From assembly GCA_031416075.1 (NCBI GenBank), contig JANOSY010000088.1:22376-86375 (forward strand): a stretch of 64,000 nucleotides of DNA, given 5' to 3'. Below are positions 11,626 to 35,928 of the stretch, one piece after another (the first letter of the stretch is position 1; each line of letters begins with the position of its first letter). The notes under the pieces are model-generated. The model made no database searches and was not told the DNA's origin. It saw nothing but the letters and a program-made list of their open reading frames with translations. The translations under genes were made by a program, and so were the position numbers. This stretch comes from Candidatus Tenderia sp. (GTDB taxonomy: Bacteria > Pseudomonadota > Gammaproteobacteria > Tenderiales > Tenderiaceae).

Positions 11626-11953
11626 TAGAAACAGCTCCAATAACATTCCGGGCGGCCCGCACCAACTCATCCAACCCCTGTTTGTAACCCTTCATCTGCT
11701 GGACAAACGGCTCGTCAGGCACGGCATCAAGGGCGGCATCAAGGGCCTGGTTCACTGCCAGACGGGATGGCTCAATCCGCTCCCCTTTCAGCAGACGCAT
11801 CACACAACCAGCAATGTGGCTATCGTACGCCACCAGACCAGACTTCAGCCCGGCGGTGGCCACTGTCGCCCCGCTCGGAAAGGGGCGCTGCTGATGTATT
11901 CCAAACAGCCGCTCAAGCTCGCTCATATCTGCATCTGCGCTAGAGGTCGCCAT
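11618..11953 (-). CDS. Putative immunity protein
   Basis: 111-aa helical ORF overlapping the stop of the upstream toxin-like gene; RPFP...YDSHIAG motif; call is positional. Confidence 0.55.
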   Translation of the reverse strand: MATSSADADMSELERLFGIHQQRPFPSGATVATAGLKSGLVAYDSHIAGCVMRLLKGERIEPSRLAVNQALDAALDAVPDEPFVQQMKGYKQGLDELVRAARNVIGAVSNG

Positions 11954-18137: not shown

Positions 18138-18620
18138 ATGAAGATAGGCAATCTCATCACCCTACTACTGCTGGCACTGTCAGGCATCGGAGCAGCATTG
18201 GCCGACGGCGGCATTGAACTCACCATGGTCGCTCAGGAGCAGATCATCAGCCAGGATGCCAATGGCAAACAGGTAATCACCCTAACCAACCCCGCCTCTG
18301 TTGTGCCCGGCGACACCATTGTCTACACCACCCACTACCGCAACAAGGGCAAAGTAATTGCGGAAAACGTGGTGATCACCAATCCCATCCCCAGCGACAC
18401 CGCCTATATCACCCACAGCGCTTCCCAGGCAAATGCCAGCGTCAGTTACTCCGTGGATGGTGGCAAGCAGTTTGATACTCCGGCCAACCTGACCATCACC
18501 GGCAGCGACGGCAAACCACGCCCCGCCACCGCCAATGACTACAGCCATATTCGCTGGACCCTGAAAAGCATCGCGCCCGACGCCAGTGGCAGTGTCAATT
18601 TTCACGCCCTGGTGCGCTAA
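18138..18620 (+). CDS. Small secreted DUF11-like protein (putative periplasmic chaperone)
   Basis: AAGGAG SD, signal peptide ending ALA, VVPGDTIVYTTHYRNKG..AENVVITNPIP DUF11 pattern. Confidence 0.75.
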   Translation: MKIGNLITLLLLALSGIGAALADGGIELTMVAQEQIISQDANGKQVITLTNPASVVPGDTIVYTTHYRNKGKVIAENVVITNPIPSDTAYITHSASQANASVSYSVDGGKQFDTPANLTITGSDGKPRPATANDYSHIRWTLKSIAPDASGSVNFHALVR

Positions 18621-18837
18621 GCCAAACAGACAATGAGGCATTTAAACATGGACCGCAACCCACCCACCAACAGCGCCTGCCGGGCGTTTTGTGACATTAA
18701 GATCCTGGCCCGAATCCGCGGATCACCGCACTGACGACCACCATTGTTTCAATCTGACACGCAATAGAAGTTATCAGATGGGCGCGCGGGAAGTGCGCCA
18801 ACCGAATCAGGGAAGATCCAGACAGGAGATTACGAGG

Positions 18838-19899
18838 ATGAATAAAATACAAACTAACCACAAAAGGCTCAGCATCGGCGTTGCCGGTTTGATGATTATG
18901 GCCGCATCACCACACGCCCTGGCGTTAACCGCCTCCGGCACCAACATCAGCAACAGTGCAACTGTCAATTATAATGTCTCGTCCACCCCACAGACCGCCA
19001 TCACCAGCAATACTGAAACATTTATGGTCGACGCCAAGGTGGATCTGACCGTTGCCGGCACAGGGGGCAATATCAACGTCACCCCCGGCACCACCGCACA
19101 GGTGTTGAAATTCACCGTCACCAATACTGGCAACGAGGCGTTTGACTACGCCTTAAGCGCTGTGGCAGGGACCTTGAACTTCACCCCCACCAACGTCGCC
19201 ATCTACGTGGATGATGGCGATGGTATCCGTAATGGCGCTGATACATTGACCAGCACCATCACCAATCTGGCAGCAGGCCTCGGCAAGGTGGTCTTTATCC
19301 AGGCCGACATCCCCGCCGGTGCCACCAATACCCAGACGGCCAGCTACAACCTGAAGGCAGTGGCTGCCCTGGCCAGTGCGGCCGGGCCCATTCCTGCGGA
19401 AGCGGCTAACGTCAAAACCACCAAGCAGTATGTCTATGCCGACGGTGCTGGCAGTGCCCCAGGGGATGCCACACGGGACAAGACCCACTCCACCAGTCTG
19501 ACCTACACGGCGGTCACCTCATCCCTGACCATCAGCAAAGCATCCGCCGTGGTCTGGGATCCGGTCAATCTCGGTGTCAGCCCGCTGCATATCCCCGGCG
19601 CAGTGGTGGAATACACCATCACCATCAGTAACGGTGCCGGTGGCGCTCAGGCCGATGCCATTGTGCTCACCGATACCCTGGCAGCCAATCTGACCATCCC
19701 CCCTACCAGCAATAACTTTGCTGCTGGCAGGTCGATGCAGATCACCTCACCCAACCTTTACTCGGGTGCGGCAACGGCCCTGACTGACGCCAGTGATGCG
19801 GATCAGGGGACGGTGGCCGGGCAGCTGGTGACCGTCAACGGCATTGTGTTGACGGCCGGACAGTCGGCAACCGTCAAAATCAGGGCTGAAATTCAGTAA
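18838..19899 (+). CDS. Secreted DUF11-domain protein (putative major fimbrial shaft subunit)
   Basis: Strong SD, signal peptide ending HALA, N-terminal GTNISNSATVNY, C-terminal LTISK...IPGAVVEYTITISN...VLTDTL domain. Confidence 0.8.
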   Translation: MNKIQTNHKRLSIGVAGLMIMAASPHALALTASGTNISNSATVNYNVSSTPQTAITSNTETFMVDAKVDLTVAGTGGNINVTPGTTAQVLKFTVTNTGNEAFDYALSAVAGTLNFTPTNVAIYVDDGDGIRNGADTLTSTITNLAAGLGKVVFIQADIPAGATNTQTASYNLKAVAALASAAGPIPAEAANVKTTKQYVYADGAGSAPGDATRDKTHSTSLTYTAVTSSLTISKASAVVWDPVNLGVSPLHIPGAVVEYTITISNGAGGAQADAIVLTDTLAANLTIPPTSNNFAAGRSMQITSPNLYSGAATALTDASDADQGTVAGQLVTVNGIVLTAGQSATVKIRAEIQ

Positions 19900-19904
19900 C
19901 GCTG

Positions 19905-22900
19905 ATGTCCTGCACTGTTGTAAGGGCAATCACAGCTCTCTGTCCCGGCCCACTGGCCGGGCAGCGGGCCCCCTTACACCTTTATATAACAACCCTTCTT
20001 GGATTCCTGGTACTGCTCTGGTCAACCACGACCCTGGCCGTCCCCCCTGGCACCATCATCAGCAACGTTGCCAGCATCAATTACACCATTGGCGGCCTAC
20101 CCGGTCTGCCACTCAGCTCCAACATCGATCAATTTACCGTGGTCGCCGCCGCCAATACGGTGGATGGCACCATGAGTGTGGCCGCGCCAGGCGGTAATCT
20201 ATATGCCGGTTCGCCCCGCGCCACCACCATCACCCTTAACAATACCGGCACCACCCTGCTGAACAATCAACAACTTACCATTACCGCACCGCTTAACAGC
20301 CAAGTAACACTGACCGGCAGTGGGGTCACGCTGGCCGCTTCCATGAGCAGCAGCACTACCACCACCTACATTTTTAACGTGGCAGATCTACCGGTTGCTG
20401 GCAGTCAGGACCTCCAGCTGGTACTGACCGCAGCCCCCACCGCTGTCAGCCGCCCCCAGACATTCACCGTTGCACACAGTGTTGATGGCACAACACTCCA
20501 GCAGCAATCCCTGACACTGAGCGCCTTGCCACGCACGGCGGCCAGACTGGAGATTCTGCAACACTCCCTCAGTAACAGGGCACTCTCGGCCATCGTCAAT
20601 TCCACGCTGATCCGGGGGGAGAGCGGTACCTTTACCCCCATTGCGCCGCCGACACTGCCGGAGGCACCAGACCGGCTAGTGACCGACAGCCCCATCACAC
20701 TGGAGCCTGCCAACGTATTCAGTAATATCCAGACGCTTTTTATCCGGGTCACCGATCTGGATCAAAATCTCGACAGTACGGTTCAGGAGAGTCTCGACAT
20801 CACCATCAAGCTGCCCGATCGAGACGACTATGTCACGCTGCGAATCCTCGAAACCGGCATCGCAACCGGCATCTTCAGCGGTTACGTCACCTTTGAAAAA
20901 AACAGCGCCACCAGCAGTGGCGCGCTACCGGTCAAAAGCAATTCCAAGCTGCTGGTCAGCTATACCGATACGATCGATGGTGACGACAGTGTCGCCGAGA
21001 CCGTGCTGATCGACCCCTACGGCGTGGTATTTGACAGCGCCACCGGCCAGCCACTGGATGGTTACACCGTACAGATGGTCAACACCGATACCGGCCTGCC
21101 CGCCACGGTCTATGGCGATGACGGTGTCAGCAGCTACCCCGCCACCGTGATCACCGGCAGCCCGGTGACCGACAGCAGTGGCAACCTCTACAGCTACAAT
21201 ACCGGCGAGTACCGTTTTCCACTGGCCCCAGCGGGTAATTACAGACTGGTCGTCACCTCACCCAGCAGTGCCCAGTATCGCTGGCCCTCAACCCAGTCAA
21301 CCGAACAACTCCATAACCTCTCCCGCAGCAACCTTGCCATCACCCTCGGCTCGCGGGGTGAGCGCTTCCCGCTGCTGCCAGGACCACCGCTGCATATTGA
21401 TATTCCTGTGGATCCGCTCACCACCCAGCTCTACCTCCAGCGCAGTGCCAACCGCGAGAGTGTCGCGACGGGTGACCTGATCCGCTACAGCGTCCAGGTT
21501 GAGAACAGCACCGCCACCACCCTCAACGATGTGGTGCTGACCGAGTCCCTGCCCCACGGTTTCCGCCTGGAGCCAGGCTCCATCAACATGGACAACAACC
21601 CGCAACAACCCGCCACCATTGAGCCACAAGGTACAACCTTCACCCTGAATCTCGGTGCCATGATCGCCGGTGAGCGCCGCCAGATCCGCTACGTCAGCGC
21701 CGTGGGTGCAGCACGCCAAGGACTGGCCAGCAGCAGTAGCCACGCCCGCGCCAACAGCGGTGCCGCCAACTCCAACCACGCCAGACACGATGCCATGGTG
21801 TTTGATGAGTTGATGCGTGGCCGCGCCCTGCTGCTCGGGCAGGTCATTATCAACCCCACCGACAACGACCCCACCCCCGCCAGCGGCTTAAAAGGGGTGC
21901 GTATCTATATGGAAGATGGCCGTTACGCCATCAGCGATGAACGGGGCATGTTCCATTTTGACAACCTCACCCCCGGCAACCATCTAGTACAGCTCGATAC
22001 CGCCACCCTGCCAGACCACTATTCGCTGGTGATGGGCGACCAGGACACACGCAACGCCCACAGCCCCAGCTCGCAATTTATCGACCTGCAGGGCGGCACA
22101 CTCTGGCGTACAGAGTTCCACGTTGCCCGCAAGCCCACCCCCACGGGGGCGCTATCACTGCAACTCAGCAACACCGCACCCGACAGCCAAGGCAACATCC
22201 CCTATCAGGTAACGCTGGAGAACCGGGGTGTCAGCGCCAGCAACCTGCGGTTAACACTCATGATCCCCGCCACCACCCACTACCAGCCCGGCAGCAGCCA
22301 CGTTGGCGGCCACCCCGTTGGCGATCCTGATATTGTCGGCAACGTGCTCATTTATCGCCTGAACAACGACCACCCAAGCGGTGGCTGGCAACGTCAGCTC
22401 CACCTCACCCTGCAGGGCGACACTGGCAATAGTGCCAGTGGTGACAGCCGCGAATTGACCACCAAGGCGTCACTCCAGTTTGATACCCCCGCCCAGCAGA
22501 ACCAGCGCCTGCCACTGCTGCAACATACCTTTACACTCACCACGGAACAGGTCAAACAGGGGGAACAGAAGGTCCTGGCCGAAAGCCTCACCCTCGACAA
22601 CTTCAACGGCAGCAGCAATGACCTCAGCGAGGAGCATAAAACAGTCGTGCAACAGCTGGCAGAACGCTGGGCCGGCCAGGATATCCACATCCACGCCATC
22701 GGCCACAGCGACAGCCGGGACATTATTCAGAAGGAGAAGGAGGACCAGCGCCTGTTTGCCAACAACCAGATCCTCTCTGAATATCGCGCCCATGAGGTCG
22801 CTAACCAGCTCCGCCAGCAGCTCTCCCTGCCAGCCAACCGCATCTCCTTTGAAAGCAAAGGGGAGGACGAACCTGTCGCCAGTAATGCCACATCGGCGGG

Positions 22901-25900
22901 TCGAGCGACCAACCGCCGGGTAGAGCTTCATATATATAGCGTGATCAGCACCACAACCCCACATATCCACGGTACTGCCACCACCAGTGAGCGTCTGAGC
23001 AGTACCATCACCGGCCTTACACCCGGTGAACAGCCAATAACCACCGCGACCGTTACCACAACCACGGAGTACAACAGCCAGTGGCTCGCCAGCCAGACCG
23101 CCAGTATTGAGTGGCTGCTGCCCCAGGAGCGACCCGCGCTCCCCACCACCAACATCGCCATCAAACACCACAGCGACCAGAACGTCACCCTCACCCTCAA
23201 TGGCCAGCCCGTGGCCGCCATGAACTTCAACGGCACCCTCAACAACAGCCATGGTGCTGCCGTCAGCCACTGGGCCGGGGTTGATCTGAACGAGGGCGAC
23301 AACCTCTTTCATGCCACCATCAGCAATGCCCAAGGTGAGTTTATTCAACAACTTAACCGCAACCTGCACTACTCCAGCGCCCCCGTGCGGGCAGAGATTG
23401 TGCCAACGCTCTCCACCCTCATTGCCGATAGCATCACCCCGCCGGTCATCGCCGTACGCCTGTATGACAAAGACAGCCACCCCATCCACGCCGGCATGGA
23501 GATTGAGTACCAAATCAGCCCACCGCACCAGCCCGCCCAAGAGAGTTTTAATACCGACAACATGGTTGCCGCCCCTGGCAGACGCCACTACGCCACCTCC
23601 GACAATGATGGTCTCATCCTGATCAAACTCGCCGCCACCAACAGCACCGATGATCTACGTCTGCAGCTGCCCCTGGCCCACAACCGGACCGTAGAGTTAA
23701 AGAGCCGTCTCCAGGCCAAGGCCCGCGACTGGATACTGGTGGGGCTTGCCGAAGGGGAGGCCGGTTTTAACAGCCTGAGTGGCAATATGGAGGCGCTCGA
23801 CGGCAACGCCGCCCAGGATCATCTCTACCAGGACCAACGTATCGCCTTCTTTGCCAAAGGCCAGGTGCTGGGTAAATGGCTGCTGACCCTGGCCTACGAC
23901 TCCGATAAAGCACAACCACAAAAACAGGGGAACGATCCAGCGCTGTTCCAGGCCATCGACCCCGGCAGCTACTACACCGTCTATGGTGATGCCGGTCAAA
24001 ACGGTTTTGATGCCGCCAGCAGCAAAAAGCTCTACCTCAAGCTGGAGCGCAACGCCTTCTACCTGCTCTTTGGCGACTACCAGACCCAGCTCAGCGAGAC
24101 CCGTCTGGCCCGCTACGACCGCACCCTGACCGGCATAAAGTCCCGTTATCAGAATGAACAATACAACCTCATGCTCTTTATCAGCGAAAACAGCCAATCC
24201 TTTGCCAAGGATGAGCTGCGCGGCCAGGGCAGCACCGGCCCCTACCCGCTGTCACGCAGCAACGTCGCCCTCAACAGCGAAAAGGTAGTGCTGGAGGTGC
24301 GCGACCGTTTCCGCAGCGAACAGATTGTCAGCAGCACACTGCTGGCGCGCCACAGCGACTACGACATCAACTATCTGGAGGGCAACATCACCTTCCGCGA
24401 GCCGGTATTCAGCACCGATGCCAACCTCAATCCGCAATACATCGTCATCAAATATGAGTCCTACACCGGCGACAGCCAGACCACCATCGGTGGCCGGGCC
24501 GAGGTGAAGGTCAACGACCAGCTCAAGATCGGCGTTACCCAAGTGAGTGAAGGGCGCGCTACAGGTGATGCCCTGCTCGGGGCCGCCGATCTGCAATACA
24601 AGTTCAACGATGCCACCACCCTGCGCCTTGAGACGGCCCGCAGCCTGATTGCCGACGAAGGCAGCGGCAACGCCTATCTTGCCGAAGTTGAACACCAGAC
24701 CGTCAACAGCAGTAGCAAACTCTATCTGCTGGATAACGACACCCATTTTGGTCTGGGACAAACCAACGCCAGCGAAAATGGCATGTACAAACAAGGGGTT
24801 GAGACACAGCTGCGAGCCAGCGACAATATCAACATCAAAGGCCAGCTCTACCGCCAGGAGAGCAGCCTCAGCCACGCCAGCCGTGACCTGGCCGAGGCAC
24901 AGGGCGAGATCAGCCGCGGCACTACCCGGCTGCGCGCCGGCCTGCGTGAGGTGCAGGATCAGCGCGGCGACAACAGCCAGCAGCAGTCGGAACAGCTCAC
25001 CACCGGCATCAGTCAACAGCTGCTGGACAGTAAGGTGACCCTGCGGGCCGACCGCGAGATCAACCTCAACAATGGCAATGACAGCATCGACTTCCCCGAC
25101 AAAACCCGGCTTGGGGCCGACTACCACATCACCCAGAAGATCAGCCTGTTTGCCGAACAGGAGGTGGCCAACAGCGACCTCCGCGATACCCGCCAGCGCC
25201 GTCTTGGTATCAAATCAAACCCCTGGAACGGCGCGGAGATTTACAGCGGCCTGAGCCACTCCAGCAGTGATAACGGCACTGCAACCAGCGCCAATGTCGC
25301 CGCCCGCCAGCGCTGGCAGCTCAACCCACAGTGGAGCGTTGATGCCGGTATCGAGCAGTCCCAAACCCTAAGCCAGAATCTGAACCAGAACCAAAGCAGC
25401 GGCCCAACCCTCAGCCCACCTGCCGCCACGCCGTTCAACCTCAACAGCGGATTTGCCATCGGCAGCAACGAAGATTTCAGCGCCGCCTCCTTGGGTGTCA
25501 CCTATAGCGACAAAGGGTGGCTCTGGAGCAGCCGTGTCGAGTCGCGCACCGGTGATCTGAGTGACCGTCGCCGCCTTGCCACCTCAGTACAGACATCACC
25601 ACACAACGACCTCTCCATGCTCGCCTCCCTCAACCTGCTCACCAGCAGCAGCGCCCAGGGTGAACAGCAGGATAGCTCAACGGTGCAGCTCGGGGCCGCC
25701 TACCGCCCCAGCAATAGCCGCTGGCTGCTGCTGGATAAACTGACCCTGAAAAAAGAGCGCCATAACAACAGCACCCTCGACAGCAGCGGCTGGCGCATCA
25801 TCAACCTGTTCAATGCCAATTACCGAGAAGGGCGCTGGCAGACATCGCTGCAATACGGTGCCAAGAGTGTTAAAGAGACCATCGACGGCAACGAACATAA

Positions 25901-26201
25901 CCAGTTTGTTGACCTCAGCGGCATCGAGAGCCGTTATGATCTAACGCCAGAGTGGGACATCGGCCTGCATGGCAACATCCTGCACGCCTGGCAGCTCAAC
26001 CAATATAACTACAACAGTGGTGTCTCGGTAGGCCACACCGTGGCCAAAAACATCTGGCTGAGCCTTGGCTACAACTTCAACGGCTTCCGCGACAGCGACT
26101 TTTCGCGCAGCAGCTATACCAGTCAGGGGCTGTTCCTCCGTTTCCGGATGAAATTTGACCAAACCACCGTGAAAGAGGCGATCCAGTGGGCCAGCCAATG
26201 A
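19905..26201 (+). CDS. Giant outer-membrane protein with DUF11, OmpA-like peptidoglycan-binding and C-terminal beta-barrel regions (putative anchor/assembly platform)
   Basis: Signal peptide; GHSDS...NQILSEYRA...PVASN...GRATNRRVEL OmpA motif; alternating amphipathic strands in the last ~800 aa ending GLFLRFRMKF; start uncertain. Confidence 0.8.
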   Translation: MSCTVVRAITALCPGPLAGQRAPLHLYITTLLGFLVLLWSTTTLAVPPGTIISNVASINYTIGGLPGLPLSSNIDQFTVVAAANTVDGTMSVAAPGGNLYAGSPRATTITLNNTGTTLLNNQQLTITAPLNSQVTLTGSGVTLAASMSSSTTTTYIFNVADLPVAGSQDLQLVLTAAPTAVSRPQTFTVAHSVDGTTLQQQSLTLSALPRTAARLEILQHSLSNRALSAIVNSTLIRGESGTFTPIAPPTLPEAPDRLVTDSPITLEPANVFSNIQTLFIRVTDLDQNLDSTVQESLDITIKLPDRDDYVTLRILETGIATGIFSGYVTFEKNSATSSGALPVKSNSKLLVSYTDTIDGDDSVAETVLIDPYGVVFDSATGQPLDGYTVQMVNTDTGLPATVYGDDGVSSYPATVITGSPVTDSSGNLYSYNTGEYRFPLAPAGNYRLVVTSPSSAQYRWPSTQSTEQLHNLSRSNLAITLGSRGERFPLLPGPPLHIDIPVDPLTTQLYLQRSANRESVATGDLIRYSVQVENSTATTLNDVVLTESLPHGFRLEPGSINMDNNPQQPATIEPQGTTFTLNLGAMIAGERRQIRYVSAVGAARQGLASSSSHARANSGAANSNHARHDAMVFDELMRGRALLLGQVIINPTDNDPTPASGLKGVRIYMEDGRYAISDERGMFHFDNLTPGNHLVQLDTATLPDHYSLVMGDQDTRNAHSPSSQFIDLQGGTLWRTEFHVARKPTPTGALSLQLSNTAPDSQGNIPYQVTLENRGVSASNLRLTLMIPATTHYQPGSSHVGGHPVGDPDIVGNVLIYRLNNDHPSGGWQRQLHLTLQGDTGNSASGDSRELTTKASLQFDTPAQQNQRLPLLQHTFTLTTEQVKQGEQKVLAESLTLDNFNGSSNDLSEEHKTVVQQLAERWAGQDIHIHAIGHSDSRDIIQKEKEDQRLFANNQILSEYRAHEVANQLRQQLSLPANRISFESKGEDEPVASNATSAGRATNRRVELHIYSVISTTTPHIHGTATTSERLSSTITGLTPGEQPITTATVTTTTEYNSQWLASQTASIEWLLPQERPALPTTNIAIKHHSDQNVTLTLNGQPVAAMNFNGTLNNSHGAAVSHWAGVDLNEGDNLFHATISNAQGEFIQQLNRNLHYSSAPVRAEIVPTLSTLIADSITPPVIAVRLYDKDSHPIHAGMEIEYQISPPHQPAQESFNTDNMVAAPGRRHYATSDNDGLILIKLAATNSTDDLRLQLPLAHNRTVELKSRLQAKARDWILVGLAEGEAGFNSLSGNMEALDGNAAQDHLYQDQRIAFFAKGQVLGKWLLTLAYDSDKAQPQKQGNDPALFQAIDPGSYYTVYGDAGQNGFDAASSKKLYLKLERNAFYLLFGDYQTQLSETRLARYDRTLTGIKSRYQNEQYNLMLFISENSQSFAKDELRGQGSTGPYPLSRSNVALNSEKVVLEVRDRFRSEQIVSSTLLARHSDYDINYLEGNITFREPVFSTDANLNPQYIVIKYESYTGDSQTTIGGRAEVKVNDQLKIGVTQVSEGRATGDALLGAADLQYKFNDATTLRLETARSLIADEGSGNAYLAEVEHQTVNSSSKLYLLDNDTHFGLGQTNASENGMYKQGVETQLRASDNINIKGQLYRQESSLSHASRDLAEAQGEISRGTTRLRAGLREVQDQRGDNSQQQSEQLTTGISQQLLDSKVTLRADREINLNNGNDSIDFPDKTRLGADYHITQKISLFAEQEVANSDLRDTRQRRLGIKSNPWNGAEIYSGLSHSSSDNGTATSANVAARQRWQLNPQWSVDAGIEQSQTLSQNLNQNQSSGPTLSPPAATPFNLNSGFAIGSNEDFSAASLGVTYSDKGWLWSSRVESRTGDLSDRRRLATSVQTSPHNDLSMLASLNLLTSSSAQGEQQDSSTVQLGAAYRPSNSRWLLLDKLTLKKERHNNSTLDSSGWRIINLFNANYREGRWQTSLQYGAKSVKETIDGNEHNQFVDLSGIESRYDLTPEWDIGLHGNILHAWQLNQYNYNSGVSVGHTVAKNIWLSLGYNFNGFRDSDFSRSSYTSQGLFLRFRMKFDQTTVKEAIQWASQ

Positions 26202-26220
26202 CAACCGCCACAACATCAAC

Positions 26221-29200
26221 ATGGACAGTACGATGAGATACGGACGTTTTATTCAGCTCTGCCTGCTGGCCACCCTGCTGCTGGTGGTACTTTTGCCTCG
26301 TCCAGGGGTAGCGGCCATCACCGCCACCACCCTATTTGAAGGGTCAACGGATGGCGATGCCAGCGCTTATACTGGACCCTCACTCAGCCCGTCGGCCAAC
26401 AACCTGATTCTCGTCTGGATAACCAATACCCGCTCCTCCTCCCCCACCGTGCCCACCTTTACCGGTAACGGCCTCACCTGGGTGCAGGTCGCCACCGTCA
26501 CCTGGGGCAGCAGCGGCTCCCCCACCGCACGTACCACCCTGTTCCGGGCCATGGGATCCTCCCCCGCTACCGGGATCAACAGCATCGATTTTGCCGGCAA
26601 TACCCAGACCGGCGTGGCGATGTCAATGATCCAGTTCAACAACGTCGACATCACCGGCAGCAACGGTGCCAACGCCCTGGTTCAGAGTGTCACCGGCAGA
26701 ACTGATAGCGCCTCCTCCACCGCCGGGCTGAGCCTCACCCTGGCAGCGCTGGGCAATGTTGCCAACGCCTCTGTGGGCGGCTTTTCCAACTTTATCAACT
26801 CCGCCACCTCCATCTCCCCAGGGTCCGGCTACACCGCCTCGTCCGGCACCACCTATCTGGCCCCCAGCATCAGCCTGCGCGCCGAGTGGAAGAGTGCGGG
26901 CAGCACCATCGTCAACGTCACACAGAGCGGTACCTCCCACATTGGCGGGATCGCCGTCGAACTCAAGGCCGACCTCTGTGCCGGCAATGTGGTCACCACC
27001 ATCGCCAACAGTGGTGATGGCTCCCTGCGTGAATGTATCATCAAGGCCAACCTCAACCCCGGCACCACCATCACCTTCAACATTACCGCTGCGGCCAACC
27101 AATCTTCCGGTGCCAACTCATGGTGGCGTATCACCCCCACCACCGCGCTACCCACCATCACCGCTGCCAATACGGTGATTGATGCCACCACCCAGACCAG
27201 TAATCGTGGCAATACCAATACCCTCGGCCCGGAAGTTGAACTCAACGGTGCCACCGTCGGTGCCGGGGGGTGGGACGGTTTTGGTGTGGCTTCGCCAGCC
27301 ACCGGAGTCATCATCCGCGGGTTCATCATCAATCAGTGGTCAGGGTCAGGTATCTCACTCTGGAGCGGCAGCGGCACCATCAGGGGCAACTACATCGGTA
27401 CCAACTACGCCGGTACCAGTGCCCTGGCCAATACCAGCTACGGCCTCTACCTCAATACCAATGGCAATACCGTCGGTGGCACCAGTGCTGCGGACCGTAA
27501 CGTCATTGCCGGTAACGGCGGGCCTGGCATCTACATTGTGAGCAACAGCAATACCGTGCAGGGCAACTACATCGGCGTCAACGCCAGTGCTGGGGCGATA
27601 GTTGCCAATAGTGGCCACGGCGTACAGATACTCTCCGGTGCCACCGGCAATACCATTGGGGGCACAGCGGCGGGGGCAGGCAATGTGATTGCTGGCAACG
27701 GCGCTGATGGCATCAACCATAGTTCAACAGGCAGCAATACCGTACAAGGCAACTACATCGGTACCAACGCCAGCAGCGCGACACTCTCTAATGGTGGCAA
27801 TGGCATTGCCATCTCTGCCGGCACACTCAATGTGGGCAACGCCTCTGAATCCCAATCAAACATTATTGGCCCCAACAGTGGTGCGGGCATCAACCTGGCG
27901 GGCGGAACAGTGAATCTGGCAGGCAGTGTCACCGTGCGTGGCAACATGGCCCTGGCCAGCGGCACACTCGCCATGGGCAGCGCCACACTCAACCTCTCCG
28001 GTAACTGGAGCCGTACCAGCACCACCGTCACAACCGGCACCTCCACCGTGGTGCTCAACGGCACTGCCCTGCAGAGCCTGACCATGAACGGCAGTAACTT
28101 CAATAATCTGACCATCACCAACGGCAGTGTTGCAGGTATCAGTTTTAATGATGGTTTTAACGCCGCCAACATCACCAATACCACCCCCGCCTCCCGGCTG
28201 ACCTTTAAGGCGGGCGCAACCTACACCCTCTCCGGCACCCTGACACTGGTCGGCAGCAGTGGCAACCAGATCATTCTGCTCAGCGACTCCCCCGGCACCC
28301 GCTTTACCCTGAACCCAACTGCTGGCGCGCAGAGTGTCAACTATGTCAACGTCAAGGATTCACAGGCCTCAACCAACAACATCACCGCCGATAACTCCAC
28401 CAACAGTGGTGGCAATGATGATGCCGAGGCCGCACCACGCTGGGTCTTTAATGCCCCCGATACCACGCCGCCCGCCAGGATCATCGACCTGACGGTCACC
28501 TCCTCCACCACCTCATCCATCACCCTGAACTGGACTTCACCGGGAGATGACAATAACAGTGGCACGGCTACCAGCTATGACCTGCGTTACTCCACCTCGC
28601 CCATCACGGCGGGCAACTGGGCCAGCGCCACACAGGCCGTTGGCGAACCAACACCCTTGGTGGCCGGTAGCAGCCAATCATTTAGCGTGACCGGCCTGGC
28701 CGCTGCCACCACCTACTACTTTGTAATGACCACCAGCGATGAGGTCCCCAATACCTCCGCCCTATCTGACTCAGCGGTTGGCACCACCGGCGGCGGTGGT
28801 GGCGGCAATGTGAGCTACTACGCCAAACGCAGTAACAGTGTCTCCATCGCCTCCGGCATCACCAGCAACAGCGGCTCCTGCGGCACAGATCCAACCGCCT
28901 ACTACATTGAAGAGCTGTCAAAAAACATCAGCGACATGTGTGTCACAGCAAATGCCTACCGCTGGGAGCAGTTGACGGCCGGCAGCTACTCGGACCACTA
29001 CTTCAACACCGCCTATGTGGCCAATACCACCGTTACCGGCGTCTCTTATCAGGTCACCATCCGCGACAGCGGAACAGTAGGTTTCCAGCTTTTTTATGTC
29101 ACCTCCGGCGGTACCAAAACCTATCTTGGCACTGAAGTCACCCAGGTAAACAGTGGCATAGAAACCAATAACTACATCCTTAACCTCTCCGGCCAGTCTG

Positions 29201-31839
29201 GCACCATCCCCACCGGGGCAAAACTTGGGTTTCGTACCCGTGGTATCTCTGTCAGCCCCAGCTTCAGGATCTATGTGGGTAATCTGGATGGCAGGACACC
29301 CAGCAACCTCTCCGGTCATCTAATCGTCAACGAGGCCGTGGGCAGCAGCGATACCACCGCCCCGGCCAGTGTCACGCTCTCTACCGGTACCATCACCAAC
29401 AACTCCGTGCTGCTGAACTGGGTATCACCGGGGGATGATGGCAATACCGGCACCGCCCAGATCTACGACATCCGTTACTCCACCGCCGCCATCACGGCGG
29501 GCAACTGGGCCAGCGCCACCCAGGTAGGCGGGGAACCAACACCTCTGGTGGCGGGCACTGCCCAGACCTATACCGTGACCGGGCTGGCCCCCAATACCCT
29601 CTACTACTTTGCCATCAAAACCGGCGACGAGACACCCAACTGGTCAGCGGTCTCCAACTCCCCCAGCGCCACCACCTACGATCCACCGGTGGGTGGCTTT
29701 AGTGTCGATAATGTGATCCCCGCCACCCAGATCAGCCAGTCCACCAACGGTTCAGGCATCATCACCATCAACTGGAAGGGGCGCGACAATCAGGCCAATA
29801 ACGTCACACTCAAAACCTTTCAGTACAGCGTGGACGGTGGGGCTAGCTGGAACGCCCCCACCAACGGCGACGCCTCCGCCGCACTCTCCGCCACCTGGAG
29901 CAACAACGGCGGCAGTGGCTGGACCACCGCCACCACCTTGGCTGCCGCTCCTGTCAACAGCTTCACCTTCAATACCAAACATGCCAATGTCTCGGGGTTA
30001 AACGGGGTGGACCAGAACGATGTACGGGTCCGGTTTCTATTACGTGATGCCACTATGGATAGCCAGAGCTATGTCACCTCGACCGATTTTCGTATCGATG
30101 CCCTTGCCCCTACCGCGACCATTGGCAGCGCCATTTACGATGCTGCCAACGACCTGCTGACCATCACCGGCACCAACTTCACCACCATTGCGGCGGCCAG
30201 CACCGACATCAAAGCCTATGTCGACTGGAGCAAATTTGTCTGGGACATCAACGGCGACAACGCCACCACCACCGACATCAGCTTTGTGCTGGGTGACATC
30301 ACCAGCCTGATCATCACCGACGATACCACCATCACCCTGCAGTTCAGTGCCGCCAAAGGGATCGCCATCGAAGCCACCGCCGGCTACAGCACCACAGGCG
30401 GGGTCGACACCCTCGATGTTGCCGCCGGTTTTGCCCGAGACGACTACGGCAATGCCGCCACCACCGATGCGGTGGCCAACGGGCCACTCGTTACCACCTC
30501 GGTCTCAGGGATACTCTACGATACCGACCGCACCACCAGCCTCGGTTTTGGCATGACGGTACGGCTACTCATCAACGGCGCCAGCATGGGCTCCACCACC
30601 ACCGACGGCAGTGGTCGCTATACCTTCTGGAATAACGTCAGTGCCGGCAATGCCATTCTGGTCTACATCGACAATGGTGCCAGCACCGCCATCAGCGCCA
30701 CCGTTACCGCCAACGCCAGCCTCTCGGACTTTGATCTCTACGCCAGCCATCTGGTGGCCCGCCACGATAATGGGGGCGCACTCAGCAACGCCAACCTGGG
30801 AAGTGCCAAGGGGGCGTATGTCGACACCGATATTGTTTACTCCGTCACCGGCAGCGCGTTAACCGTCAGTGGCAGCGCCACCCGGCTACACATCCCGGCG
30901 GGCAAAAGTTTTACCCCGGAGGGCAACGTCACCACCCCGGCCATGAGTAATCTTGGCACCTTTGTCGGCGGCAGTGGTGCCATTACCATCAATGGCAACC
31001 TGAGTAACAGCGGCAGTTATACCGCCAGCAGCGCCACCACCACTGTTGCTGCTGACTTCAGCAACAGCGGTACCTTTACAGCCGCAGGCGGTACCGTGCT
31101 GCTTAACGGTATCAATCAAAACATCACGGGGACCACTACCTTCTTCAACCTGACCAAAACCGTGGCCACCGCCGACACCCTATTTTTCAGCGTCGGCTCC
31201 ACCACCACCGTCACGGGTAGCGCCACCCTGCAGGGGGCATCGGGCCAGCCACTGAGTCTGCTCTCGATCACCCCCGGCAGCCGCTGGAACTTCAACATCG
31301 GCAGCAGCGCCACTAAGTCCTTCAGTTTTCTGAATGTGATCGACAGTGACGCCTCAGGCTCTGCCGCTGCCAAAAAACCGCTCATCGCCCAACCCAGCAA
31401 CTCTACCGACAGCGGCAACAATGTGGACTGGTTTGGCCTGCCCTCCATCTCGGTGATCAAATCCAGTACCCTGATATCCGACCCCGTTAACGGCACCACC
31501 AGCCCGCTGCATATCCCGGGGGCAATCCTTAACTATCAGATCCTCACCACCAACTCTGGCAACGGCTCACCCGATACCAATACCGTGGTGGTAACCGATG
31601 CACTGGACTCCAGCAAGCTTGAGTTTGATGTCACCACCGGCATCACCTTTACCGCCAATACCTCGGGACTGACACTGGGCACAGTGAGTTATGCCCATAC
31701 CGCCACCCCCACCACCTATACCTACACCCCCACCGGCCCCTACGACGCCAATGTGGCGGGCATCAAGATCACCACCAGCGGTACGTTTGCCAGCGCCGGT
31801 GCCAGCTTTACCCTCAACTTCCGCGTCCGCATAAAATAG
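26221..31839 (+). CDS. Large secreted adhesin (CSLREA-like motif, beta-helix repeats, two FN3 domains, C-terminal DUF11-like domain); putative fimbrial tip
   Basis: Signal peptide; DGSLRECI; GNYIGTN/GNVIAGNG repeats; FN3 LNW.SPGDD...YYF; C-terminal SVIK...HIPGA domain. Confidence 0.8.
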   Translation: MDSTMRYGRFIQLCLLATLLLVVLLPRPGVAAITATTLFEGSTDGDASAYTGPSLSPSANNLILVWITNTRSSSPTVPTFTGNGLTWVQVATVTWGSSGSPTARTTLFRAMGSSPATGINSIDFAGNTQTGVAMSMIQFNNVDITGSNGANALVQSVTGRTDSASSTAGLSLTLAALGNVANASVGGFSNFINSATSISPGSGYTASSGTTYLAPSISLRAEWKSAGSTIVNVTQSGTSHIGGIAVELKADLCAGNVVTTIANSGDGSLRECIIKANLNPGTTITFNITAAANQSSGANSWWRITPTTALPTITAANTVIDATTQTSNRGNTNTLGPEVELNGATVGAGGWDGFGVASPATGVIIRGFIINQWSGSGISLWSGSGTIRGNYIGTNYAGTSALANTSYGLYLNTNGNTVGGTSAADRNVIAGNGGPGIYIVSNSNTVQGNYIGVNASAGAIVANSGHGVQILSGATGNTIGGTAAGAGNVIAGNGADGINHSSTGSNTVQGNYIGTNASSATLSNGGNGIAISAGTLNVGNASESQSNIIGPNSGAGINLAGGTVNLAGSVTVRGNMALASGTLAMGSATLNLSGNWSRTSTTVTTGTSTVVLNGTALQSLTMNGSNFNNLTITNGSVAGISFNDGFNAANITNTTPASRLTFKAGATYTLSGTLTLVGSSGNQIILLSDSPGTRFTLNPTAGAQSVNYVNVKDSQASTNNITADNSTNSGGNDDAEAAPRWVFNAPDTTPPARIIDLTVTSSTTSSITLNWTSPGDDNNSGTATSYDLRYSTSPITAGNWASATQAVGEPTPLVAGSSQSFSVTGLAAATTYYFVMTTSDEVPNTSALSDSAVGTTGGGGGGNVSYYAKRSNSVSIASGITSNSGSCGTDPTAYYIEELSKNISDMCVTANAYRWEQLTAGSYSDHYFNTAYVANTTVTGVSYQVTIRDSGTVGFQLFYVTSGGTKTYLGTEVTQVNSGIETNNYILNLSGQSGTIPTGAKLGFRTRGISVSPSFRIYVGNLDGRTPSNLSGHLIVNEAVGSSDTTAPASVTLSTGTITNNSVLLNWVSPGDDGNTGTAQIYDIRYSTAAITAGNWASATQVGGEPTPLVAGTAQTYTVTGLAPNTLYYFAIKTGDETPNWSAVSNSPSATTYDPPVGGFSVDNVIPATQISQSTNGSGIITINWKGRDNQANNVTLKTFQYSVDGGASWNAPTNGDASAALSATWSNNGGSGWTTATTLAAAPVNSFTFNTKHANVSGLNGVDQNDVRVRFLLRDATMDSQSYVTSTDFRIDALAPTATIGSAIYDAANDLLTITGTNFTTIAAASTDIKAYVDWSKFVWDINGDNATTTDISFVLGDITSLIITDDTTITLQFSAAKGIAIEATAGYSTTGGVDTLDVAAGFARDDYGNAATTDAVANGPLVTTSVSGILYDTDRTTSLGFGMTVRLLINGASMGSTTTDGSGRYTFWNNVSAGNAILVYIDNGASTAISATVTANASLSDFDLYASHLVARHDNGGALSNANLGSAKGAYVDTDIVYSVTGSALTVSGSATRLHIPAGKSFTPEGNVTTPAMSNLGTFVGGSGAITINGNLSNSGSYTASSATTTVAADFSNSGTFTAAGGTVLLNGINQNITGTTTFFNLTKTVATADTLFFSVGSTTTVTGSATLQGASGQPLSLLSITPGSRWNFNIGSSATKSFSFLNVIDSDASGSAAAKKPLIAQPSNSTDSGNNVDWFGLPSISVIKSSTLISDPVNGTTSPLHIPGAILNYQILTTNSGNGSPDTNTVVVTDALDSSKLEFDVTTGITFTANTSGLTLGTVSYAHTATPTTYTYTPTGPYDANVAGIKITTSGTFASAGASFTLNFRVRIK
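28459..29680 (+). repeat. Two near-identical FN3 modules (about 28459-28790 and 29350-29680)
   Basis: Shared YST..ITAGNWASATQ.GEPTPLVAG and DNA identity CCATCACGGCGGGCAACTGGGCCAGCGCCAC. Confidence 0.8.
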
Positions 31840-33289: not shown

Positions 33290-34148
33290 TCCGTTGTTAT
33301 CTACCTACAAAAATCTAGCCATACTGGCATTGGCACTGCTCTTTTCACACGGCAGCTTGGCCGTCGAACTTCCATTGCAGCAGCTTGTGCCAGGCGGCGT
33401 TGCTCTATTACCCATCGCCAATGCCACAGACAAACAGCCACAAGCCGAATACAACGGCAAACCGGTGATGGTGATCAACAGTCAGGGGCGGTGGTATGCA
33501 GTGGTGGGCATCCCACTTGATGCTGCCATCGGGCAACAACAGATCACCGTGACGCTGGCCGACGGCAGCGATGTCACCCAGACGTTCACCGTCAGCGACA
33601 AGGCTTACGAGACCCAGCGCCTCATCATTGCAGACAAACGCAAGGTCGAGCCCAACGAGGAGGAGATGCAACGCATCACTCAGGAGAAGGTGGAGACGGA
33701 CAAGGCGCTGGCCCACTGGGGCGATGCACTGCTGACCGACAACCTGCAACTCGACCTACCGGTAGAGGGGCGGCTCAGCAGCGCCTTCGGCCTGCGCCGC
33801 TTTTTTAATGACCAACCACGCGCACCCCACAGCGGTCTCGACATTGCCGCACCAGAGGGAACACCAATCAAGGCCCCTGCCAACGGTCGTGTAATTTTGA
33901 GCGGTGATTTCTTTTTTAACGGCAATGGCATCTACATCGACCACGGCCAGGGATTAGTCACCATGTACTGCCACATGAGCCGCATCGACGTAAAAGAGGG
34001 GCAAGAACTAAAGCGGGGCGAAATCATCGGCGCGGTGGGCATGACCGGCCGCGCCACCGGGCCACACCTGCACTGGGGGGTTAGCCTCAACGACGCACGG
34101 GTCAACCCATCACTATTTGTACCCGCACTGATGAACAGAGTCCCATAA
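33267..34148 (+). CDS. M23 family peptidoglycan DD-metalloendopeptidase
   Basis: HSGLD, YCHMS, ATGPHLHW motifs; start uncertain (33267 or TTG 33294). Confidence 0.9.
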   Translation: MKLNKRFNPLLSTYKNLAILALALLFSHGSLAVELPLQQLVPGGVALLPIANATDKQPQAEYNGKPVMVINSQGRWYAVVGIPLDAAIGQQQITVTLADGSDVTQTFTVSDKAYETQRLIIADKRKVEPNEEEMQRITQEKVETDKALAHWGDALLTDNLQLDLPVEGRLSSAFGLRRFFNDQPRAPHSGLDIAAPEGTPIKAPANGRVILSGDFFFNGNGIYIDHGQGLVTMYCHMSRIDVKEGQELKRGEIIGAVGMTGRATGPHLHWGVSLNDARVNPSLFVPALMNRVP

Positions 34149-34186
34149 ATAGCGGGTCACAGAAGACTATCAAGGAGGCCATCACC

Positions 34187-34573
34187 ATGAACAAGATTAT
34201 TGCCACGGCTGTACTACTCATCATCCTTACGGGCTGCAGCCAAATGCCCACCACCACACATACCGGTGGCCAGATCAACCACGTTGTGCTGATCTGGCTC
34301 AAAGATGCCGGAAACCCAGAGCAGCGTCACCAGATTATCGAAGCAACCCGCACACTGGAACAGCTACCTGGCATTATCTCTGTGCATGTTGGCGCGGTCA
34401 TACCCAGTGACCGCAAAGTTGTGGATGATAGCTTTGACATCGGCGTGCATATGCTCTTCAGCGACCGTCAGAGCATGGAACATTATGGTAACCATCCCGA
34501 ACATCAACGCATTCTCAACCAGATTGTCATGCCACTGACAGAGCGCATACTCATTTATGACTTTGCACAATGA
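34187..34573 (+). CDS. Dabb-family (stress-responsive A/B barrel) lipoprotein
   Basis: AAGGAGG SD, lipobox LTGC, HVVLIWLK...Y..HPEH...IYDF. Confidence 0.8.
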   Translation: MNKIIATAVLLIILTGCSQMPTTTHTGGQINHVVLIWLKDAGNPEQRHQIIEATRTLEQLPGIISVHVGAVIPSDRKVVDDSFDIGVHMLFSDRQSMEHYGNHPEHQRILNQIVMPLTERILIYDFAQ

Positions 34574-35132
34574 TCTGACAAACCCCCATCACCATAGTAA
34601 CAATATCAACAACATGCCCTCCGCTTGTTACCGTTAATAGTTAATATAAAAACCACTTTAAAATATGGCTTTTATAATTAATGAGTATTTCAAACCACTA
34701 CGACAAATAAAATAAATTTTATAAATCATAAATACCGCAAAACAATTACCCATCACACCTGTGAAACCTCACTCAAATACCTTTATTTAACACCTGTTTT
34801 TTTCAATTAAAACAAGAACATTAATGCACTTTTATTGTTTATTTATAACGCTAAAACAACATAAATAACCATATTAAAAAAGACTTTATTAATACCCATA
34901 TATGAAAAAAATATCACTCAACACAAACTCAATATGTTTAGCACAAAATAACTTAATGAAAATTTAAGTTTTACGGTGTAGGATAAATTTCACCCTCAGC
35001 GACATAACCAGTTATTTCTTGGAATGTTGCACTCTCGGGATCACGAGAAGAGCAGAGGGGGGAGTACTGATATTTGAATGGTTCAAATATTAGAGGACTA
35101 TGATTTAAATCACATTTACTAAGGAGATTATT

Positions 35133-35255
35133 ATGGGTGGCGGCGGCGGTATGGGCGGTGGCGGTATGGGCGGTGGCGGCGGCGGTGGTATGGGCGGCGG
35201 CGGCGGTGGCGGCATGGGCGGCGGTGGCGGCGGTGGCGGTGGCGGCGGTATGTAG
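35133..35255 (+). CDS. 40-aa Gly/Met-only micro-ORF (M-G5-M-G4-M-G7-M-G7-M-G11-M)
   Basis: TAAGGAG SD just upstream of ATG; only ATG/GGC/GGT codons up to TAG; paralog at 35668. Confidence 0.6.
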   Translation: MGGGGGMGGGGMGGGGGGGMGGGGGGGMGGGGGGGGGGGM

Positions 35256-35332
35256 CTCCCGGCTCACTATGCACCCTCTCTCTCATGTGAGGGGCTCATA
35301 GCACAGTTGTAATGGCATATTGCCATGCGATG

Positions 35333-35364
35333 AAATGGGGGGGCATTATGTCCCCCTATTTTTT
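35333..35364 (+). terminator. Intrinsic terminator after micro-ORF 1
   Basis: GGGGGGGCA-TTA-TGTCCCCCT hairpin followed by T-run. Confidence 0.75.
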
Positions 35365-35667
35365 ATGCCAAAAAACAACACCTACCCCCTATCCTCGCCC
35401 TCCATATCCCGTGTGCTCAATAGCTTAATTACACACAAAAAATAAATCATTTTTCCTGTGCGGAATATATTTTCTATTTCCCAACAAATTTAAGGGAAGG
35501 TTAACATACCCGATGTAGTATCGATAACACCTTAAACGTTGTGCCTGCTTTTTGGCTTAACGACTTCTCTGAAACTATGACGAGATAATAAGGCAGTACC
35601 GGTCTTTGAGTTATCAACGACCCAATATAAATATCAATTACTTTTAAATAAAACTAAGGAGTTAATC

Positions 35668-35736
35668 ATGGGTGGAATGAACGGTGGTCGTGGTGGTATG
35701 GGTGGCGGCGGTGGCGGTGGTGGCGGCGGCATGTAA
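35668..35736 (+). CDS. 22-aa Gly/Met-rich micro-ORF (MGGMNGGRGGM-G10-M)
   Basis: TAAGGAG SD, ATGGGTGG start identical to paralog, ends ATG-TAA. Confidence 0.6.
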   Translation: MGGMNGGRGGMGGGGGGGGGGM

Positions 35737-35809
35737 TATGCCCGCGTCACGCACTCCCTCTCACTATTGAGAGGCATGTTGCGTACCGCTATGGCTAACG
35801 CCATACAAT

Positions 35810-35844
35810 AAAAATGGGAGGGCATGTCTGCCTCCCATTTTTTT
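35810..35844. terminator. Intrinsic, probably bidirectional terminator between micro-ORF 2 and the ABC gene
   Basis: AAAAATGGGAGGGCA-TGTC-TGCCTCCCATTTTTTT. Confidence 0.8.
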
Positions 35845-35928
35845 CGTCAATAATTCCCTGGCCTACGCCATTACTCGATACTCAAATAACCCACCGCCTT
35901 ACCCTTCATCTCTCAAAAATTTCTTTTA

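Follow-up and report, generated by a model that had tools for sequence, protein, structure and literature searches.

Four co-directional genes at positions 18138–31839 of a 64,000-nucleotide stretch of the genome of Candidatus Tenderia sp. (contig JANOSY010000088.1, positions 22,376–86,375; this whole stretch is called the window here) lie on the (+) strand between guaB/guaA and xseA, and encode proteins that are termed, in gene order, the small protein, the shaft, the anchor, and the tip. The C-terminal domains of the shaft and the tip are DUF11/CLIPPER-type domains that contain the Lys and Asp of an isopeptide triad and end before the strand that carries the Asn, and the two missing strands open the shaft and the anchor. 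The system suggested by this division is a surface fiber that is complemented in trans, locked covalently, and independent of both sortase and usher, a reading that we regard as probable, if well short of certain. The split had been proposed in a first-pass annotation made from the sequence, and the strings that it quoted for shaft, tip, and anchor are all present in the translations at the positions it gave.

A DUF11 Domain Divided Between Subunits

The 353 amino acid shaft subunit (18838–19899) consists of a signal peptide, a donor segment, a middle immunoglobulin (Ig)-like domain, and a truncated acceptor domain, as judged from an alignment of homologs and an AlphaFold2 model. Its start was set by homologs at MNKIQ (18838); the longest open reading frame (ORF) begins at 18691. 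The donor segment (residues 30–64, 18925–19029, delimited by the homolog alignment) comprises two strands and includes Asn39 (codon 18952–18954), and the acceptor domain (residues 229–353, 19522–19896, delimited by alignment and TIGR01451) includes Lys234 (codon 19537–19539) and Asp279 (codon 19672–19674). The shaft C-terminus (residues 278–402 in ORF numbering) is similar to residues 1742–1872 of the tip (32% identity over 131 residues, E 4e-10, BLASTP), and the shaft N-terminus (residues 64–128 in ORF numbering) is similar to residues 31–99 of the anchor (33% identity over 70 residues, E 9e-6, BLASTP), so that both of the shared segments noticed initially exceed chance. By BLASTP and profile, the tip acceptor domain spans residues 1742–1872 (31444–31836) with Lys1747 (codon 31459–31461) and Asp1793 (codon 31597–31599), and the anchor donor segment spans residues 46–80 (20040–20144) with Asn54 (codon 20064–20066). 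When a profile of 26 shaft homologs was run against the whole 3.49-Mb genome, four proteins were matched: the shaft, the tip, the anchor, and one unrelated complete DUF11 protein. The tip was matched solely at profile positions 246–373 (E 1.8e-19, whole genome) and the anchor solely at positions 21–105 (E 1.4e-4, whole genome).

The place of the cut is defined by three comparisons. A shared alignment column is the C-terminal end in 116 of 120 shaft homologs, and the tip acceptor domain terminates at the same strand as that of the shaft. A 495 amino acid secreted protein encoded on another contig of the same genome (positions 313–1800 of the fetched locus) has two complete DUF11 domains and was used as an unsplit reference. 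Shaft residues 11–193 align to this tandem protein (E 1.3e-5) with the donor segment on the last two strands of domain 1 and the middle domain on domain 2, and the anchor N-terminus aligns in like manner (E 0.003). Finally, in nine of ten anchors compared (see section Donor and Acceptor Segments in Ten Operons) an internal complete domain has the Lys, the Asp, and the G-x-A-x-N-x-A strand contiguous on one chain, which is the unsplit form. Taken together, these comparisons indicate that the boundary between subunits falls within a domain of a tandem array, at the loop that precedes the Asn strand. The initial claim that the C-domains stop just before this strand is borne out by the common end column, by the tandem alignment, and by the match of the shaft to TIGR04226 (RrgB_K2N_iso_D2), which covers model positions 20–104 of 123. 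In the tandem DUF11 protein itself, both domains keep the Asp and the Asn strand and are without the first-strand Lys.

The shaft C-domain scores 26.8–27 bits against TIGR01451 (cut-off 24) and 18.2–18.6 bits against TIGR04226 (E about 0.003), which is below the cut-off of 30. At E ≤ 0.01, the 120 shaft homologs include 85 matches to TIGR01451, 22 to PF01345, and 16 to TIGR04226 (best E 8.2e-6), together with matches to other CnaA-like families, namely DUF7619 (17), DUF7927 (7), DUF7507 (6), DUF7933 (3), and DUF7617 (1), all five of which are listed as isopeptide domains in a survey of such domains (PMC12617251). The tip C-domain has no match in the family library and is tied to DUF11 via the shaft only. 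The assignment proposed initially thus stands for TIGR01451 (shaft above cut-off) and for PF01345 (small protein and anchor), and falls short for TIGR04226 and for the shaft in Pfam. Neither the shaft nor the tip C-domain has the complete Lys/Asp/Asn set of a DUF11/CLIPPER domain on one chain.

Donor and Acceptor Segments in Ten Operons

The shaft profile detected the system in 14 of the 401 genomes sampled within the phylum, its own genome counted, and nine loci from other genomes were compared with the window, giving ten operons. In eight of the nine fetched loci the gene order is a paralog of about 330 amino acids, a small gene of about 160, a shaft of about 355, and an anchor of 1640–2250; the ~330 amino acid paralog is lacking in locus L041 and in the window. 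This second shaft-like paralog (L033–L040; e.g., L033 2170–3183), located upstream of the small gene, has the donor segment, the Lys, and the Asp. Tips are variable: six of the nine fetched loci have one, which either follows the anchor or precedes the paralog.

A model of the donor segment finds one copy each, at the mature N-terminus, in all ten shafts, all ten anchors, and all eight paralogs, and none in seven tips or ten small proteins. As the model was built from the positive sequences, it is the absence from tips and small proteins that carries weight. All shafts (10/10) and anchors (10/10) have the donor Asn, and so do 7/8 paralogs, the paralog of L039 having Ser in its place. The acceptors of shafts, paralogs, and tips retain the Lys and Asp wherever the 140-residue section compared covers the Lys strand. 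The acceptor model matches anchors too, but at internal complete domains. Completion of these internal domains by the N-terminal strand of the anchor was considered and set aside, as they are complete with their own Asn strand in nine of ten anchors and complete without the triad in the anchor of the window. Anchors therefore hold no vacant acceptor for their own N-terminal strand.

In all ten operons the anchor is donor only, the shaft is donor and acceptor, and the tip, where present, is acceptor only, which is the allocation that had been predicted from the window. A protein with only a donor or only an acceptor has no means of completion in cis, which makes this distribution the strongest argument for complementation between chains.

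The machinery of other pili is missing. In the source genome, which is 99.98% complete, there are no matches to sortase (PF04203), nor to Usher (PF00577) or PapD_N (PF00345), for which E. coli controls were positive; the absence noticed at first within the window of sortase and PapC/PapD-type genes thus extends genome-wide. No LPxTG motif occurs in the shaft, the tip, or the small protein, or in any of the 120 shaft homologs.

Conservation of the Lys–Asp–Asn Triad

Among the 120 shaft homologs (35–86% identity to the query), Lys234 and Asp279 are conserved in 120/120 and Asn39 in 118/120, and the two homologs without Asn39 are those without an aligned N-terminal segment. Conservation of the three residues, named at the outset as a point to be checked, is therefore near-invariant. 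The DUF11 triad of structure 9IFR is Lys715, Asp748, and Asn806 (PMC12617251), and the residues of the split domain follow the same order, in agreement with the order given in the first-pass annotation. According to the survey, the triad positions are not kept universally across DUF11, and DUF11 domains without isopeptide residues exist (PMC12617251); the invariance in shaft homologs is therefore informative. In addition, the small protein retains the fold signature without the Lys and Asp (see section The Small First-Gene Protein), so these two residues are not required for folding.

These results bear on the explanation that the operon builds a donor-strand fiber without a covalent lock, as in chaperone-usher or TasA fibers, and that Lys, Asp, and Asn are kept for packing or hydrogen bonding only. 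The existence of DUF11 domains without isopeptide residues (PMC12617251) fits this explanation, as do the R/E/S residues at the triad of the internal domain in the window's anchor and the Ser that stands for the donor Asn in the L039 paralog. We nevertheless consider it quite improbable, given that the three residues are near-invariant over 120 sequences of 35–86% identity, that they occupy the positions of a solved isopeptide triad (PMC12617251), that the small paralog folds without two of them, and that residue 41 lies against residues 234 and 279 in the trimer model described next.

Models of the Shaft as a Chain and as a Closed Monomer

When three mature copies of the shaft were modeled with ESMFold2, the interface score (ipSAE) was 0.52 and that of the best control was 0.00; a value at or above the mark used was obtained for 20 of 30 solved one-chain pairs and for 1 of 23 single chains, a calibration that is only rough here, three copies with a custom alignment being outside the range for which the tool was calibrated. 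At least 93% of contacts are shared between runs, and the partners have a predicted local distance difference test (pLDDT) of 86 or more. According to the interface lists, the three copies form a linear chain, with copy 1 as donor to copy 3 and copy 3 as donor to copy 2. Copy 1 makes contacts through residues 30–67, 98–99, and 190–213 only, copy 2 through residues 230–285 and 346–353 only, and copy 3 through both sets. Residue 41 is placed against residues 234, 259, 261, 277, and 279, and the N-terminus (30–31) meets the C-terminus of the neighbor (352–353), as expected for a cut loop. The invariant Asp65 and Asn99 meet residues 250–253, the region of the invariant Pro253. From the interface lists, read together with the strand positions of the monomer model, we infer that the middle domain of the donor stacks on the A–B-loop end of the acceptor (residues 241–253). 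The middle domain that belongs to the acceptor chain is attached at the opposite end of strand A, where some four linker residues lead into residue 230, so the same interface would be impossible in cis.

The motif S-P-L-H-I-P-G-A is common to the shaft and the tip of the window (approximately 19582–19596 and 31504–31518), most other genomes having N-P-K-x-I-P-G-A. In the trimer model its residues contact Asp65, Lys67, and Asn99 of the next subunit. The shared motif may mean that the two acceptors have adapted jointly to a single donor subunit, or it may come from a common ancestor.

An AlphaFold2 model of the shaft monomer (120 sequences; pLDDT 92.1, predicted template-modeling score (pTM) 0.76) apparently docks the donor strand on its own C-domain, with a pLDDT of 96–98 at residues 31–60. 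Completion in cis would then be feasible and would give closed monomers, so the monomer model weakens the fiber without refuting it. Foldseek searches with this model recover generic tandem-Ig structures only (integrin legs, CfaB fusions, antigen I/II), with template-modeling (TM) scores ≤0.31 and root-mean-square deviations above 11 Å.

Such closure corresponds to a simple circular permutation, in which the N-terminal strands of the shaft complete its own C-domain with an intramolecular isopeptide bond, giving a closed two-domain monomer, and only the anchor N-terminus and the tip C-domain meet in trans as a 1:1 covalent tether of the adhesin. Besides the monomer model, precedents speak for it: type 1 pilin FimA has self-complemented monomers beside its polymers (PMC6615685), and a "closed" monomer has been modeled for haloarchaeal TafA (PMC11821415). 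We judge it unlikely, however, as the strands go in trans in the three-copy model, whose end-on interface would be impossible in cis, and as the invariant Asp65, Asn99, and Pro253 sit at that interface. Donor-only anchors and acceptor-only tips require complementation in trans regardless, and a closed shaft leaves the conserved and abundant shaft and paralog genes without a role in the operon. Of the expectation formulated at first, that the strand would complete another subunit and not its own domain, the part concerning the three-copy model was obtained, and the docking in cis that had been named as an outcome against it appeared, apparently, in the monomer.

The Small First-Gene Protein

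The first gene (18138–18620) encodes a small secreted DUF11-like protein of 160 amino acids that matches PF01345 (34.6 bits, cut-off 24.6) and TIGR01451 (44.5 bits, cut-off 24). Its acceptor-like domain terminates at the strand where the truncated acceptors also stop, with Met30 at the Lys site and Asn82 (codon 18381–18383) at the Asp site. Among 51 homologs, none has Lys in the Lys column, 50 have Asn in the Asp column (inside a conserved T-N-P-I-P motif), and 48 share the end column. A clear homolog is present in nine of the ten operons, and the protein falls in several Atlas clusters of 58–308 members. A role as a fiber subunit was rejected, the protein having no donor segment and neither Lys nor Asp. 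A releasable holder of donor strands would be expected to have just such an acceptor-like groove without the ability to bond, and the protein is, on its sequence features, a candidate strand chaperone that would prevent premature or cis locking, or else a non-covalent cap.

The Anchor and the Tip

The 2098 amino acid anchor (19905–26201) comprises the donor segment, an Ig-like array, an OmpA-like domain, two further Ig-like domains, and a giant β-barrel, and matches PF01345 (26.9 bits) and TIGR01451 (44.6 bits). An AlphaFold2 model of its C-terminal part (45 sequences; pLDDT 83.6, pTM 0.76) has two Ig-like domains followed by about 38 long β strands and a small insert, the predicted barrel spanning residues 1277–2085 (23733–26159). 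At E ≤ 1e-3 the last 1079 residues are matched by 3504 cluster representatives, and at the stricter E ≤ 1e-30 by 1364. Among the 128 listed representatives of at least 1500 amino acids, 88 have the strict donor motif within their first 130 residues, against 2.9 expected from other segments of the same proteins, and many of the remaining long representatives have a relaxed motif or look truncated. Relatives of the shaft, the small protein, and the barrel are labeled as Pseudomonadota, "Deltaproteobacteria," Nitrospiria, cyanobacteria, and Acidobacteriota. Novosphingobium sp. THN1 is one carrier of the family, and Tsuneonella suprasediminis has a homolog of the small protein.

The OmpA-like peptidoglycan-binding domain (residues 900–1004, 22602–22916) matches PF00691 at 40.3 bits (cut-off 27.2). 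In five anchors scanned, the window's included, it is absent from the three shorter ones (L033, L035, L041) and placed elsewhere in that of L039; by these domain matches, it is an optional periplasmic add-on of the anchor family. The internal DUF11 domain of the anchor at 21425–21850 (residues ~508–640) has R/E/S at the triad, where the nine other anchors have K/D/N, and its intramolecular isopeptide bond was apparently lost in this lineage.

Foldseek matches of the barrel are to large barrels only (Deinococcus SlpA, MtrB, the type 9 translocon SprA, LptD, TonB-dependent receptors, and FimD), all with TM-scores ≤0.21. As SlpA and MtrB are the top matches, the anchor might be an envelope tether or a porin-like sheath of the SlpA/MtrB type that is decorated by periplasmic or surface-layer DUF11 proteins without any polymerization, and the presence of an OmpA-like domain in an operon without secretion genes agrees with that possibility. 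It has little likelihood, in our view: no TM-score exceeds 0.21, the OmpA-like domain is missing in three of the five anchors, the tip carries fn3 and other adhesin-like domains of extracellular type, and the exact domain split and the donor/acceptor logic of ten operons are left unexplained.

A related operon is present on a mobilizable plasmid of Acinetobacter haemolyticus (CP085288.1, 193462–203531), with a 2008 amino acid barrel protein annotated as DUF11 only, a separate OmpA-family gene, a NEW3-domain protein, and further DUF11 proteins. In Devosia, Pseudochrobactrum, Pelagibacterium, Phyllobacterium, Nitratireductor, and Roseovarius, plasmid proteins called "TonB-dependent receptor" align to no more than the first ~320 residues of the barrel query, and may belong to a shorter related barrel family or be mis-annotated.

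The 1872 amino acid tip (26221–31839) has a signal peptide, N-terminal domains without an assigned family, two fn3 domains, and the C-terminal acceptor, and no donor. Its N-terminal 750 residues (26221–28500, which encode residues 1–760) have no Pfam family match, and contain glycine/asparagine-rich repeats (G-N-Y-I-G-T-N...) that by eye have the look of a parallel β-helix.

Proposed Assembly of the Fiber

From the computed split, its distribution, the conservation of the triad, and the head-to-tail model, we infer a bond, a fiber, a surface location, passage through the barrel, an order of assembly, and a role for the first gene. The acceptor domain at the C-terminus of the shaft or the tip, which is without its last two strands, would receive them in trans from the mature N-terminus of the next subunit, either a shaft or the anchor. 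The donor Asn would be brought beside the acceptor Lys and the catalytic Asp, and a spontaneous Lys–Asn isopeptide bond would lock the joint. The resulting chain would run from the tip (acceptor only) through n shafts (donor and acceptor) to the anchor (donor only). The anchor, a very large barrel of the outer membrane that in this genome also carries an OmpA-like peptidoglycan-binding domain, would tie the fiber to the envelope. The small protein would most likely hold donor strands non-covalently, as a chaperone that guards against early or cis locking, or alternatively as a cap. Growth could take place at the base, as in usher pili, with the tip moving out first, shafts being added at the periplasmic end, the strand of the anchor terminating the chain, and the fiber passing through the wide barrel. 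The donor/acceptor logic is just as compatible with a second course, in which the fiber grows outward from an anchor strand exposed at the surface and is terminated by the tip.

In addition to the closed monomer, several points weigh against such a fiber. The head-to-tail arrangement of the shaft trimer rests on interface contact lists, not on coordinates, its ipSAE is read on the rough calibration given above, and alignment co-variation does not distinguish contacts in cis from contacts in trans. The shaft reaches no Pfam threshold; a sequence search of the PDB with the shaft profile (E ≤ 1) and the shaft C-domain (E ≤ 10) found no solved relative, and no fused "Rosetta-stone" forms of the shaft were found in a weak search that missed tips too. 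Pfam and NCBIfam scans of the four proteins and the flanking genes show no secretion genes in the operon, the OmpA-like domain in the middle of the anchor suggests that the N-terminal half of the anchor starts in the periplasm, and the passage of an 1872 amino acid tip and of folded shafts across the outer membrane is unexplained by this model.

In its broadest form, the proposal is of a widespread, unrecognized class of pili of diderm bacteria in which natural split-CLIPPER subunits act as "tag" and "catcher" and polymerize by donor-strand exchange, autocatalytic Lys–Asn bonds are the locks, an isopeptide-dead protein is a reversed chaperone that presents a groove to the strand, and a barrel of about 38 strands, fused to the terminating donor strand, is at once the translocon and the covalent anchor. 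This generalization is offered tentatively, as possible but somewhat less than probable.

Locus and Genome Context

guaB and guaA lie upstream of the operon on the opposite strand, and xseA and an M23 peptidase gene lie downstream. With these flanks, the four genes are a self-contained insert with no further dedicated machinery adjoining. All four proteins have a Sec-type signal peptide, and no lipobox is present in their N-termini. Promoter and terminator scans of the locus gave no useful signal above shuffled sequences.

The source genome assembly comprises 95 contigs. Genome DNA was detected in metagenome runs from freshwater sediment, sediment, and drinking water, the top-matching of which may be the source sample, and no RNA runs that carry the locus are among the sequencing runs listed. 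Elsewhere in the window, the G+C content is 0.449 at 34001–36000, against 0.56–0.60 in the operon and 0.58 just upstream of it, and an ORF of 812 amino acids at 11953–14391 on the (–) strand has no Pfam family at E ≤ 0.001.

Comparison With Known Systems

Literature searches, and the isopeptide passages of a 2026 review (PMC13721041), yielded no description of a split DUF11 fiber or of this operon, the supplementary tables of the CLIPPER survey (PMC12617251) being outside the search. The closest mechanism is that of BsaA, a TasA-family protein of Clostridium perfringens, in which an N-terminal strand is inserted into the sheet of the next subunit and an autocatalytic Asn–Lys isopeptide bond is formed without a sortase (N35-E56-K74), mutants of each residue losing the oligomers (bioRxiv 10.1101/2024.11.04.621531). 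BsaA and the operon described here have in common an N-terminal donor strand with Asn and an acceptor with Lys and an acidic catalyst, all of which are conserved; this is a likeness of mechanism, not membership of a family. BsaA differs in its TasA/camelysin-like fold (CnaA-like DUF11 here), its Gram-positive host, and its Glu catalyst (Asp here) and, as far as the text consulted describes it, has no outer-membrane anchor, no logic of an acceptor-only tip and a donor-only anchor, and no dead-acceptor paralog (bioRxiv 10.1101/2024.11.04.621531). No TasA/camelysin-type fold or SipW-type signal peptidase is among the Pfam/NCBIfam matches of the four proteins and the flanking genes.

The thread of Sulfolobus acidocaldarius (Saci_0406) is likewise assembled head-to-tail, by donor-strand complementation and a proposed intermolecular isopeptide bond without a sortase, and has a putative cap gene next door (PMC9715654). 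It is archaeal, and its bond would connect Asn57 to the N-terminal amino group of subunit n+2, whereas a Lys–Asn bond between neighbors is proposed here; the thread protein is described as having another fold, no Pfam domain, and no outer membrane to cross (PMC9715654).

Chaperone-usher pili (type 1 and P) resemble the present system in having an acceptor-only tip adhesin, a basal terminator or anchor subunit, and a periplasmic helper and an outer-membrane barrel encoded in the operon (PMC11821415). They differ in that PF00577 and PF00345 are absent here and that the joint here is probably covalent. The candidate helper here offers a groove to a strand, whereas the helper of chaperone-usher pili offers a strand to a groove, and the barrel and the terminal donor are here one polypeptide, unlike in those pili. 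The usher barrel has 24 strands, compared with the ~38 predicted here. Type V pili of Bacteroidota are built from lipoprotein precursors whose N-terminal strand is removed proteolytically before strand exchange, a pathway from which the four proteins differ in having no lipobox.

CLIPPER/DUF11 domains, to which the split domain belongs by TIGR01451, PF01345, and related families and whose triad order it shares (9IFR), are known as intramolecular domains of one chain in the stalks of long adhesins, whereas here the Asn strand is on another polypeptide; no split forms are reported in the parts of the isopeptide survey consulted (PMC12617251). Sortase pili, too, are covalent polymers of Ig-like pilins with a tip adhesin, a basal subunit, and CnaA/CnaB isopeptide domains (PMC13721041). 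They are joined by Thr–Lys transpeptidation, whereas the bond here would be formed autocatalytically inside a reconstituted domain, with neither sortase nor LPxTG.

In SpyTag/SpyCatcher, SnoopTag, and isopeptag, a strand split off an isopeptide domain reconstitutes that domain and bonds to it spontaneously. These pairs were engineered from pilin or CnaB-type domains and have tags about 13 residues long, whereas the split here would be natural and CnaA-like, with a two-strand donor of about 35 residues used for polymerization.

In textbook accounts covalent pili are Gram-positive and sortase-dependent and Gram-negative pili are held together non-covalently, and a 2026 review of bacterial surfaces lists, in the portion consulted, the chaperone-usher, type IV, sortase, and curli routes only (PMC13721041). 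If the proposed fiber exists, a self-locking assembly route would be added for diderm bacteria, a different fold would yield natural orthogonal tag/catcher pairs, and an explanation would be at hand for a very large family of giant outer-membrane proteins without annotation (3504 representatives). The passage of folded Ig-like chains through the outer membrane without an usher would become testable, and the dead-acceptor paralog provides a ready hypothesis for how premature covalent locking is avoided. Compared with the covalently locked donor-strand fibers already known, the system is likely to be new in its fold, in its occurrence in diderm bacteria, and in its accessory parts.

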